Source of the DNA: a plasmid
DNA length: 58,935 nucleotides
Sequence record: NZ_CP021273.1
Direction: 5' to 3' (one strand)
Shown here: positions 15,001 to 18,000 of the stretch, piece after piece
Layout of the letters: the number at the start of each line of letters is the position of its first letter
How positions within the stretch are numbered: the stretch's first letter is position 1
Made by a program: the position numbers

Positions 15001-18000
15001 TACGTAATGATTTGAGGATCAAGCATGATTTCCCTTTTATTAAAATAATTAATTTTCACATTTTTTGTAATTTATCTGTGATTTATTGAAAATGCAACAA
15101 AAAATTAAAATTTCTATTTACTATAGAAACACAACGTGTTTTAATTTTTTTAAGATCATTTTATTAGTTGTTTAGAAGTTGAATAGGTCAATGTTCTTGA
15201 GGGTTGTGAGAGAGTCTTGGGGACATTTACGGGGATTGTTATGGACGTTTACAGGGATGGCTGCGTCGTTTACGGGATAGGGTGAGACGTTTTCAGGAAG
15301 TAAAAATAAGAAAAATAACTGATGGTGCGACGTTTACAGGTAGGGTGGGACGTTTGCAGGGATAATTGAGGAGAGACACTTGTGTCAAATTTAGAATTGA
15401 AGGGATTGAAGTTGCTTCGAGCCTTAGACAATTCATTCCAGGATGGAGAATCTATACCCAGCGAATCGATAACTCATTTAGCTGTTGAGTTATTAAACTC
15501 TGGAAAATATCAGCCTAGAAAACAATTTGATGAATCTATCTTAGATGAGCTCGCAAACTCCATCAAAGCCCAAGGAATTATCCAGCCACTTATTGTTAGA
15601 AAGATTGCAGAAGAATGCTATGAGATTATTGCTGGTGAAAGACGCTGGCGAGCAGCGAAAAAAGCAGGATTAACTTATGTACCTGTTATTATTAGAAATA
15701 TTGATGATAATGTTGCTCTCGCATTTTCACTAATTGAAAATATTCAACGCGAAAATCTTAATCCGATTGAAGAAGCCTTAGCATTAAACCGTTTTCGCGA
15801 AGAGTTTGAAATGACTCATGAGGACATAGCACAAATGATAGGGCGCTCTAGAGTTTCGGTGACTAATACGCTTCGCTTACTATCTTTGGATTCTAGAGTA
15901 ATAGAGATGTTAAACGAAGGTAAAATTGATATGGGGCATGCCCGATCTCTTTTAAAACTTTCGCCAGAACAGCAATATCAGGTTGCATGCATCGTCATTG
16001 AGAAACAGCTGAATGTACGTGACACGGAGGCATTAGCAAATCGATTAAAGTCATCAGAGAATGAGGGGCGTGACAAGACTTTTTCTTTAGCTAAACCGCA
16101 TGACAAGTGTGAGGAGTGGAGTACCTATCTATCTCAACAATTTACAACAAATGTTTCTGTAAAAGTAAATGCTGAGGGTAAGGGAAAAGTGATTATCGAG
16201 GTGAATTCTGCTAGCGAGGTTGATTGGTTGGTAAAGCTAATGAGCGAAAGAGGGTAGTTATCCACAAAATCTGTTGATAACGTTGTGTGATATTCGTGAG
16301 TTAAGCCTGTTAATGAGAAAAAAGAGCGTGTTTAATTTTTGGATTAATGATGAGACCATTGCGTATCTTTATCAGTAGTGTACAACAAGAATTTAAAGAA
16401 GATCGTCTAGAGTTATGCCACTGGTTGAAAAATGATCCATTAATGCGTCGTTTTTTTGATCCATTTTTATTCGAAGAATTGCCTGCCCATGATAGAAGAG
16501 CAGATCAAGTTTATCTGGAACAAGTCCGTGCTTGTGATATTTATATTGGTCTTTTTGGCTATGATTATGGCTTTGAGAATGCAGAAGGTGTTTCCCCTAC
16601 TGAGGAAGAATACAACCTAGCTTCCGAGGAACACAAGACTCGATTAATTTTCATAAAAGGAAATGAAGAAAGTAAACGCCACCCTAAAATGAAAACCCTT
16701 ATTACTCGTGTCGGAACCGAATTAATCAGGAGGCGTTATCAATCTATTTCCGAGCTGATCTCTGGCGTTTATGCCGCTTTAATACATGATTTAGAGGAAC
16801 GAAAATTAATTAGAAATAGCCCTTTTGATGCCGCGCCTTGTAGAGGCGCGACATTATTAGACTTGGACGAAGAGGGAATAACGACTTTTTTACGTCGAGC
16901 AAAACGCGGACGAGGGTTTCCATTGCCTATCGATGCGACCTCTTTTGAATTATTGTCCCATTTGAACTTGCTAGATGAGGATAAACCTACACATGCAGCA
17001 ATGTTACTTTTTGGAAAACAACCACAACGGTTTGTTATGTCATCCGAGGTAAAATGTGCTCATTTTCATGGGACAGAAGTAGCTAAACCCATTCCTTCAT
17101 ATCAGGTATATAAAGGCACCTTATTTTCACTGGTCGATCAAGCGATTGATTTTGTAATGTCCAAAATTAATCTTTGGGTGGGGACTAGAGAGGGAGGAGC
17201 AGAAGTGCCTGTTGCCTATGAAATTCCACAGGAAGTTGTGGCCGAAGCGATTGTCAATGCCGTTGCTCATCGTGACTACGATAGTAATGGAAGTGTGCAA
17301 GTTATGCTGTTTGCAGATCGATTAGAAATTTGGAATCCAGGAGGACTCCCTCCCTCATTAACCTTAGAAAAATTACGTCATCCACATGGTTCTGTTCCAA
17401 GGAACCCTTTACTTGCTGAACCTTTGTATTTAACGAAATACATTGAGCGCATGGGTACTGGTACAGGCGATATGATTCGTCGTTGCCGTGAGGTTGGACT
17501 GCCAGAGCCTGAATTTTCTATCTCAGACGGATTCAAGACAACCATTTGGCGTAAATCATCATCGACGACCGGACAAGTTACCGGACAAGTTACCGGACAA
17601 GTTACCGGACAAGTTACCGGACAAGTTACCGGACAAGTTACCGGACAAGTTACCGGACAAGTTACCGGACAAGTCGATCCATGGATTGAGCGGGTACTCA
17701 GAGCATGCGAACTAAAAGGCGAGCTGAAAAGTATAGAGCTGCAAGAGGTTGCTGGAATCAGGCATCGTGAGACTTTTCAACGCAATTATCTTGATCAACT
17801 ACTCAATGAGGAATTGATTGAGCGCACCATCCCAGAGAAGCCTAAAAGTAGACTACAAAAATATCGCTTGTCCCATAAGGGGAAAATGTTATTGGAAAAT
17901 TTGTCCAAAAATGAAAAATAAACATATTTCTTTTCGCAGGTTATCAGAGCAAGACTTTCCGCTTCTTATAAAATGGTTAGAAACACTCCATGTCAAAATT

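Follow-up and report, generated by a model that had tools for sequence, protein, structure and literature searches.

Proteins carrying a DUF4062 domain, also named NIR, were recently described as TIR-like NADases which act by NAD+ depletion in abortive phage defence (10.64898/2026.05.01.722283, 10.64898/2026.06.25.731849, 10.64898/2026.09.04.749371). The DUF4062/NIR systems Swarozyc, Evangelion, Vulcan, Vesta and NIR-Avs each need a catalytic glutamate (bioRxiv 2026 preprints), and in KpSwz a winged helix-turn-helix (wHTH) auxiliary (AUX) domain binds the phage portal. The Schlatpase proteins, which combine SLFN_AlbA_2 with a GHKL ATPase and in some cases a C-terminal HTH and are exemplified by RzAgo SLFN-pAgo, pSlfn-HisKinase-HTH, COG2865 and PDB entry 3lmm (DIP2311), form the other group relevant here. 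In RzAgo, the binding of ATP to its GHKL domain leads to tetramerisation and activation of the Schlafen nuclease, with E314 and N318 coordinating Mg and the gamma-phosphate (10.64898/2026.05.29.728809). The Schlatpase-wHTH chassis is the second most common bacterial Schlafen architecture, Schlafen-minimal HK-wHTH proteins were called 'backup suicidal effectors' of BREX loci (PMC12839542), and fusion of a Schlatpase module to a type I specificity subunit was reported. Here we describe a gene which joins features of both groups. It lies in a plasmid-derived DNA stretch of 58,935 nucleotides (sequence record NZ_CP021273.1, in the following referred to as the window), which represents a Legionella F-type conjugative plasmid; its plasmid matches are all from Legionella or Fluoribacter and are typed MOBF/MPF_F. 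We consider it reasonably probable, though far from certain, that this gene encodes an abortive-infection-type defence protein on a single polypeptide, comprising an NADase effector, an ATPase switch, a wHTH sensor and a disordered repeat tether.

An initial annotation, made from the sequence alone, had proposed an open reading frame (ORF) at 16347-17921 with a four-part architecture consisting of DUF4062, a Schlafen-associated middle region, HATPase_c_4 and a wHTH. The plus-strand ORF of 524 amino acids (aa) was confirmed, and the following features were assigned to it:

16347..17921, plus strand: whole gene, 524 aa, with DUF4062(NIR), middle domain, GHKL ATPase, (TGQV)9 tether and wHTH (from ORF list, Pfam and AlphaFold2 model)
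16347..16811, plus strand: N-terminal DUF4062/NIR TIR-like domain, aa 1-155, predicted NADase effector
16608..16610, plus strand: codon of Glu88, candidate catalytic residue, located within SPTxxE[F/Y] and unchanged in all 112 aligned homologues
16812..17228, plus strand: middle alpha+beta domain, aa 156-294, homologous to the Schlatpase region between SLFN_AlbA_2 and GHKL
17229..17552, plus strand: GHKL-type ATPase (HATPase_c_4), aa 295-402, supported by Pfam PF13749, invariant residues and Foldseek
17244..17258, plus strand: GHKL N-box E300-x3-N304, predicted ligands of Mg and the ATP gamma-phosphate, both residues invariant
17556..17564, plus strand: short serine run (TCA TCA TCG), SSS here and SSSS in CP021280 (L001), a second small length polymorphism
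17568..17675, plus strand: 12-bp in-frame variable-number tandem repeat (VNTR), (TGQV)9, aa 408-443, eight copies of ACCGGACAAGTT and one of ACCGGACAAGTC, predicted disordered tether
17676..17918, plus strand: C-terminal winged helix-turn-helix (Fic-like_C), aa 444-524, subtype 'DPW...', putative variable sensor/adaptor cassette

Profile searches identified three Pfam domains, all above their gathering cut-offs: DUF4062 (PF13271; aa 6-92, 5e-19, 68.7 bits vs a cut-off of 24.7), HATPase_c_4 (PF13749; aa 316-394, 3e-21, 75.6 bits) and a Fic-like_C wHTH (aa 448-509, 4.5e-18). The proposed architecture was therefore correct, and the repeat array sits exactly between ATPase and wHTH. The label 'RecG-like putative regulator' likewise agreed with the source names of homologues ('RecG-like / predicted HTH regulator'). 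An AlphaFold2 model calculated with 112 homologues reached a mean pLDDT of 84.8. NCBIfam contained no family model for the 524-aa protein, and it was not found in an exact-sequence cluster look-up.

The N-terminal domain showed the TIR-like or nucleoside-deoxyribosyltransferase-like fold. Its family profile matched the DUF4062 domain of KpSwz in the PDB (10wc/11cq/11cv; E=5.5e-6, positions 3-149) and, with lower significance, human TEP1 (11gz; E=0.016). In the 112 aligned homologues Y or F comes directly after the invariant Glu88; conservation of F8 is 90% or higher, and F8, S10 and S11 vary little or not at all. The pair Glu88-Y/F89 fits the description of E87-Y88 in Eva01, and F8 corresponds to the N-terminal aromatic residue F11 of that protein. 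KpSwz, Eva01 and their relatives thus share with the window protein an N-terminal DUF4062 domain, the TIR-like fold and the conserved glutamate. Systems of the Swarozyc/Evangelion class also follow the logic of a single-gene effector with an auxiliary sensor and are plasmid-borne, and the KpSwz sensor has the winged-HTH fold seen at the C-terminus of the window protein. The auxiliary parts, however, differ: that of the window protein is a 370-aa Schlatpase-type chassis, whereas Eva01 carries a short AUX domain, KpSwz a stalk with AUX, Vulcan HEAT repeats and Avs a STAND-TPR region. The match to the KpSwz profile stops at position 149, and the DUF4062 domain is followed by 370 aa comprising middle domain, GHKL, tether and wHTH, which is not the layout of Evangelion type I or Swarozyc sensu stricto. 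In the published Evangelion screen, 2.9% of 447 were Legionella plasmid matches, which may correspond to the window gene.

The regions following the N-terminal domain resemble Schlatpase proteins. A BLASTP comparison with a protein of the architecture SLFN_AlbA_2-HATPase_c_4-Fic-like_C (L096) revealed 30% identity (E=5e-48) over residues 88-523 of the window protein, in which the SLFN domain of L096 (aa 4-110) has no counterpart. Within the 524 aa, Pfam gave no match to SLFN_AlbA_2 (PF04326), and a motif search found neither E(x)4(D/E)xK nor SAFAN. The term 'Schlafen-associated' for the middle region therefore holds in so far as this region is homologous to the post-nuclease part of Schlatpase proteins, while the nuclease domain and its motifs are absent. 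Invariant GHKL residues in the alignment of 112 homologues were E300, N304, H308-R309-D310-Y311, G370-T371-G372 and D375, among which E300 and N304 correspond to the RzAgo ligands E314 and N318; Foldseek matched the domain with the ATP-binding domain of a histidine kinase (3a0t). The PF13749 GHKL domain with E-x3-N ligands and the homologous post-SLFN region are thus common to Schlatpase and window proteins. The tRNase domain with its motifs, present in the former, is replaced by a DUF4062 NADase domain in the latter. As judged from these alignments, an effector swap has apparently taken place, which put a DUF4062 domain in the position of the Schlafen nuclease on a Schlatpase-wHTH chassis. 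Because the Schlafen tRNase is replaced, the predicted output is NAD+ depletion and not tRNA cleavage. The best PADLOC match, SIR2-PNTD1-PNTD2 (aa 110-382), shows the same chassis behind another NADase; a literature search for the model name 'PNTD1' returned nothing relevant. In a phage collection, only partial matches to the middle and GHKL regions were detected and no full-length homologue.

The junction between ATPase and wHTH is occupied by the sole strong tandem array of the window, reported by TRF at 17568-17674 with period 12, 8.9 copies, 100% matches and a score of 214. Nine units, the last of which (ACCGGACAAGTC) ends in C, were counted instead of the ten initially annotated; the lone Thr which precedes the array may have caused the miscount. 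At up to two mismatches, the 12-mer matched the window 10 times, 9 of them within the array, as compared to 3.0 matches expected by chance (0 of 100 shuffles reached 10), and no further copy of the 12-mer exists in the window outside the array. The exact 524-aa protein with nine units is encoded on 12 independent contigs (e.g. GCA_046363525.1), hence the array is not an assembly artefact. AlphaFold assigned pLDDT values below 50 and no secondary structure to residues 407-440, which together with the G/P-rich units of the family does not describe a rigid helical spacer. The PDKL repeats noted earlier in the alternative frame do occur in the +2 frame (ORF 17488-17715); as a gene, this ORF was rejected, being merely the +2 reading of the array. 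On/off phase variation by the repeat was rejected as well, because the unit is a multiple of 3 and the only frameshifted allele is broken elsewhere.

The closest described repeats are the 'TAEL' units in HsdS of EcoR124I/II (and EcoDXXI, EcoPrrI), which are also encoded by 12-bp in-frame repeats with allele-dependent copy number (PMC3874165). In both cases a tetrapeptide array lies between two functional modules of a defence protein and its copy number differs between alleles. TAEL repeats, however, form a rigid alpha-helical coiled coil of 2-3 copies, in which each unit extends the DNA-recognition gap by 1 bp, whereas the units of the window family are G/P-rich, predicted to be disordered, present in 1-10 copies and lack a known specificity read-out.

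The window gene belongs to a large, unusually conserved and horizontally spread family of more than 6,498 sequence clusters (E<=1e-5). Its top 120 homologues, which are 57-77% identical, originate from Verrucomicrobia, Planctomycetes, Proteobacteria, Acidobacteria, Chlorobi and other phyla; nearly all contain the three Pfam domains, and PF13271 is present in all except P0114. A longer homologue was found on a contig assigned to an archaeon (Methanothrix sp. metagenome-assembled genome (MAG), L083:4137-6001), which could reflect horizontal gene transfer or a binning error. The repeat had been regarded as unusual, but within the family it is the norm. A period-4 run was present in the GHKL-wHTH linker of 97 out of 121 family proteins and nowhere else in the protein; its length has a mode of 4 units, with the 9 units of the window protein being the maximum among the 121. 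The corresponding DNA has a tandem array of 12-bp units at this position in about 68 of the 80 genome loci, from many phyla (2-10.5 copies, unit-to-unit DNA identity mostly 0.93-1.0). The units vary between lineages (TGQV, TGEV, AGEV, Q/RPES, TPQV, TPEV, TPPV, TDPV, THQV, TAPV, MSGK, GAQS, RLES). Adjacent units with the same tetrapeptide were identical in DNA in 160 of 196 cases, while synonymous codons differ between lineages. This indicates that the arrays are continually regenerated by slippage, i.e. by concerted evolution, and do not just reflect conservation of the peptide. No paper containing the repeat peptides was found in the searchable literature. A VNTR pair was also seen outside Legionella, namely RPES x9 (CGGCCAGAGTCG x9, perfect) in a Lentisphaeria MAG (L053) and RPES x4 in Oligosphaera ethanolica (L054), both genes being located in hsdM-hsdS-[gene]-hsdR-ygjP operons. 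A Dependentiae homologue (P0050, 589 aa) has an apparent second repeat stretch after the first wHTH.

Copy number was compared among related Legionella plasmids and genomes, 13 Legionella records in PLSDB matching the gene region. The alleles carry the following numbers of units:

1 unit: P0114
2 units: L016
3 units: pLPP type, L013
4 units: L001, L003/L012 (AGQV units), L005, L008, L010, L011
5 units: L004, L009
6 units: L014
9 units: window

The number is thus not invariant, and the in-frame slippage suggested in the initial annotation is borne out by alleles that differ by one unit while being 99.9-100% identical elsewhere: L009 and L011 (5 vs 4 units) are 100% identical outside the array, L004 and L005 (5 vs 4 units) 99.93%. 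L013, with 3 units, is at least 99.4% identical to L004, L005, L009 and L011. In Legionella, copy number consequently changes faster than point mutations accumulate. The Legionella alleles show that the array is resized by slippage; that this also happens outside the genus is evident from the homogenised arrays of other phyla.

When 6,216 protein pairs were compared, identity in the body (aa 1-400) was nearly uncorrelated with identity in the wHTH (aa 444-515) downstream of the array (r=0.107), some pairs having 92% identical bodies and 27% identical tails, and sequence similarity breaks at the start of the repeat. Unit type tracks the wHTH subtype: all repeat-bearing tails of one subtype follow T/AGQV-type units, whereas all 'ISGQLNKVIR' tails follow Q/RPES or RLES. 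These patterns show that repeat and wHTH form a cassette which recombines independently of the body.

The same module was found in two other protein classes. As a protein search with just the wHTH as query gave short fragments only, architectures were surveyed by tblastn against plasmids. Fic proteins carry it with xDxV x3 (L095), xPQV x3 (L097) or, in PDB entry 4rgl (Dde_2494), TDHVGDQVTDQV; they resemble the window protein in their C-terminal wHTH (7.6e-12) and in the short xDxV/xPQV repeats located directly before it. Fic proteins differ by their AMPylase-type effector and by lacking the GHKL chassis, and some are encoded between hsdS and hsdR. Schlafen-GHKL proteins with the module are L096, L098 (L. 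adelaidensis, RHESx7) and L099 (SRLEx3), so that a tetrapeptide-repeat tether before the wHTH also occurs in Schlatpase relatives. The DUF4062-type L080 and the Schlafen-type L099 have a near-identical 'RLES...PLAAKVFL' array boundary; as read by eye from the alignment, their tails are about 70% identical vs 36% over the whole aligned stretch, with clearly lower identity of the bodies. Among these genes, that of L. adelaidensis plasmid 9 (L098:1094-2629) encodes SLFN_AlbA_2 and Fic-like_C with a perfect RHES x7 before the wHTH and is followed by a site-specific integrase gene. A degraded Schlafen-type gene with a large internal deletion was detected on a Methylotuvimicrobium alcaliphilum plasmid (L094:2049-2707) directly upstream of parA/parB, a second case of the module beside a partition locus; a frameshift exactly at the boundary of GQV repeat and wHTH splits it into two annotated coding sequences.

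Taken together, the protein may act as follows. By homology, the DUF4062/NIR domain would function as a TIR-like NAD+ hydrolase, whose activation depletes NAD+ and stops the infected cell. The middle domain and GHKL would constitute the switch: ATP binding would cause oligomerisation and thereby turn the effector on, as in Schlatpase proteins. The wHTH would serve as sensor or adaptor and recognise a trigger, e.g. a protein of phage or foreign origin, DNA or a partner complex, in analogy to the AUX domain of KpSwz. The (TGQV)9 segment, created and resized in frame by replication slippage of the 12-bp unit, might act as a disordered leash between switch and sensor. Since a wide range of lengths is tolerated, copy number probably modulates reach or avidity instead of acting as a switch. 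Tentatively, one can go further and speculate that '[tetrapeptide]n + Fic-like_C wHTH' is a mobile, hypervariable sensor cassette used by at least three unrelated toxic effectors (Fic AMPylase, Schlafen tRNase and DUF4062/NIR NADase), mostly in type I restriction-modification (R-M) operons. The 12-bp array would then be both a contingency locus which resizes the tether (reach, avidity, threshold) and a microhomology handle for sensor exchange between effectors and lineages.

Several observations weigh against the interpretation as a tethered defence protein. HMMER places E97 of KpSwz at the non-conserved position 86, two residues upstream of E88, so that the register is ambiguous and E88 as the catalytic residue is inferred. 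PADLOC has no full-length model for the architecture, and a GHKL, HATPase or Schlafen-type fusion is not mentioned in the texts of the three DUF4062 preprints. The wHTH, which is similar to MarR-type DNA binders, could simply bind DNA. Neither hsd nor other recognisable defence genes were found near the gene in the window. The pLPP-type allele, represented by six near-identical 129.9-kb records and pLPP itself, is frameshifted: L002, L006 and L007 (pLPP of strain Paris and the 129.9-kb plasmids of L. pneumophila Flint 2 and L. hackeliae) have an additional T at nucleotide 511 of the gene (TTATT to TTATTT, not a long homopolymer), which yields a DUF4062 ORF and an 'ATP-binding protein' ORF with 3 repeat units. 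Because of this +1 frameshift, the gene is dispensable in pLPP-type plasmids. As to the tether, 24 of the 121 proteins lack a clear period-4 run, and the nine-unit allele is identical in 12 assemblies, from which it follows that slippage is not rapid on very short timescales. Linker length in the family ranges from 8 to 60 aa (median 28.5; 44 in the window protein), and this wide tolerance argues against fine length tuning; the tuning of domain spacing suggested initially is therefore not supported for a tether that is predicted to be disordered.

The last three observations are also accounted for if the array is a neutral microsatellite, an explanation which we regard as possible but doubtful. 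Here the gene would be as described above and any unstructured spacer would suffice, so that slippage-prone 12-mers drift and the nine copies have no phenotype. The predicted disorder of the segment and the varied chemistry of the units (TGQV, QPES, MSGK, GAQS) fit this explanation, and neutral drift of copy number itself is plausible. It accounts less well for the fact that about 68 of 80 loci, belonging to many phyla, as well as Fic and SLFN proteins have their period-4 arrays at exactly one junction, and for the tie between unit type and wHTH subtype. Persistence of the array over about 40% body divergence can hardly be understood unless selection or a strong site-specific mechanism is assumed.

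The genomic context of the family bears on a further explanation. Look-ups for three homologues placed two between hsdS and hsdR and one beside a type I-C CRISPR-Cas system, and a tblastn census detected hsdM, hsdS or hsdR in the flanks of 38 out of 73 loci outside Legionella, typically in the order hsdM-hsdS-[gene]-hsdR-ygjP; as the census relied on just two query sets, this number is a minimum. Plasmid-borne type I R-M operons harbour, at this very position, genes for Fic and Schlafen-GHKL proteins with the same C-terminal module. The claim that the family recurs in defence islands is thus justified for the family by these R-M and CRISPR-Cas neighbours, but not for the window locus, which has no defence neighbours. 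A conserved ORF of about 83 aa without Pfam match (L090:2484-2735 and relatives in L035, L042, L049, L052 and L083) recurs near the DUF4062 gene and hsdR in several operons.

Toxic effectors in hsd operons have a precedent in PrrC (EcoprrI) and RloC, anticodon nucleases whose genes lie inside type I R-M loci and which are plausibly second-line guards. By analogy, the wHTH of the DUF4062 protein could dock on a type I R-M complex or on the DNA of this complex, with the NADase staying latent until a phage anti-restriction factor disables or perturbs the R-M enzyme; the Legionella copy would then either cooperate with an R-M system encoded on the chromosome or represent an orphan. The position of the gene between hsdS (or hsdM) and hsdR at many loci, its sharing of this slot with Fic- and SLFN-type proteins, the reported fusion of a Schlatpase module with a type I specificity subunit and the 'backup suicidal effectors' of BREX loci all agree with such a guard. 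We nevertheless judge this explanation unlikely: 35 of the 73 non-Legionella loci are without detectable hsd genes in their flanks, and tblastn of the flanks gave no hsd match at any Legionella locus of the family. In 31 loci without clear hsd match the neighbours were mixed, including integrases, Mrr, MmeI, SMC/AAA proteins and housekeeping genes. PrrC and RloC themselves show no sequence relationship to the window protein and use a different effector chemistry, and the Legionella copy is not located beside R-M genes. A eukaryote-directed TIR effector translocated by Dot/Icm was also considered and rejected, as members from free-living phyla show 57-77% identity and are located in R-M operons, unlike what would be expected of a virulence factor specific to Legionella.

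On the window plasmid the gene order is repA (minus strand), parB (minus), parA (minus), parB2 (plus), the DUF4062 gene and then a cargo block. The neighbouring features are:

15382..16257, plus strand: parB2, full-length ParB-like gene and upstream neighbour, with Pfam ParB_N, HTH_ParB and ParB_C, a chromosomal-type ParB
12809-13828, minus strand: divergent 339-aa ParB of the parAB operon, one of two ParB-family genes on the plasmid
18118-21462: cargo block directly 3' of the gene, with four GNAT acetyltransferase ORFs, an APH(6)/hydroxyurea-kinase-type phosphotransferase and a PNPOx-like gene

The first GNAT ORF, listed with 113 aa, is apparently too short at its N-terminus, since a 140-aa call exists in L100. 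The gene parB2 is located directly 5' of the DUF4062 gene in L001-L005 and L007-L013, i.e. in every Legionella allele with an available upstream flank, and a simple scan revealed no sigma-70-like promoter in the 90-bp gap between them. A Legionella oakridgensis plasmid has the backbone in common, including parB2, up to window position 16280, where the match ends just before the DUF4062 gene. The gene is therefore accessory DNA, located where the rep/par backbone borders on the cargo.

This arrangement could alternatively indicate a housekeeping function on the plasmid, with the protein being an HTH transcription factor or a partition accessory acting with ParB2 and DUF4062 a ligand-binding domain. 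Besides the constant position downstream of parB2 and the lack of a promoter in the gap, the similarity of the wHTH to MarR-type DNA binders, the database names 'predicted HTH transcriptional regulator' and the SLFN-type remnant beside parA/parB on the Methylotuvimicrobium plasmid speak for it. Such a function is improbable, however, since the L. oakridgensis plasmid contains backbone and parB2 with the match ending before the gene, the pLPP lineage has retained the plasmid with a frameshifted gene, the family outside Legionella is not par-linked and occurs in R-M operons, and the invariant Glu as well as the GHKL ATP ligands point to enzymes. We see parB2 as a context neighbour, which may at most have a putative functional tie to the DUF4062 gene.

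Hardly credible is a role of the nine direct 12-mers as iterons or as a centromere-like site for Rep or ParB with merely incidental coding, although they form a direct-repeat array within about 3-5 kb of repA, parA and parB: outside the array the window contains no copy of the 12-mer, the replicon offers better candidates at 15222-15365, 11407-11468 and 12786-12829, and chromosomal homologues in many phyla carry in-frame arrays with other unit sequences at the same protein junction. The first of these regions, between parA and parB2, contains four direct copies of a motif of about 17 nucleotides (GACGTTTACAGGGAT-like), and related inverted copies (CCYGCAAATGTCCCATC) are located just downstream of repA at 11407-11468; both sets may serve the replicon as iterons or operator sites. 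At the repA/parB junction (12786-12829), the 18-bp palindrome AATCCGAGTACTCGGATT occurs in two perfect copies whose starts are 25 bp apart and which constitute a candidate parS/centromere. Elsewhere in the window, at 26759-26845, two opposed 9-bp arrays, TTGCGACAA x3 and its complement TGTCGCAAG x3, are separated by about 35 bp and form inverted tandem repeats.

It was only in 2025-2026 that DUF4062/NIR NADases on the one hand and bacterial Schlafen-GHKL proteins on the other became known as immune modules, and the window gene joins both. Preprints of these years had introduced DUF4062 systems and Schlatpase proteins, but their texts do not take up a fusion of the two, and the combination of a conserved slippage-prone tether with an exchangeable cassette appears to be undescribed. 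For Legionella typing, the array represents a plasmid-borne VNTR. The more unexpected point is that a slippage-prone in-frame array is kept at the junction of effector and sensor across many phyla and three effector classes. If the length of the array or its recombinogenic nature matters, it would offer a simple route for the diversification of immune sensors and a handle for engineered sensor swaps. A mobile cassette of repeat and wHTH, if it proves true, would represent a previously unrecognised mechanism by which bacterial immune sensors diversify.

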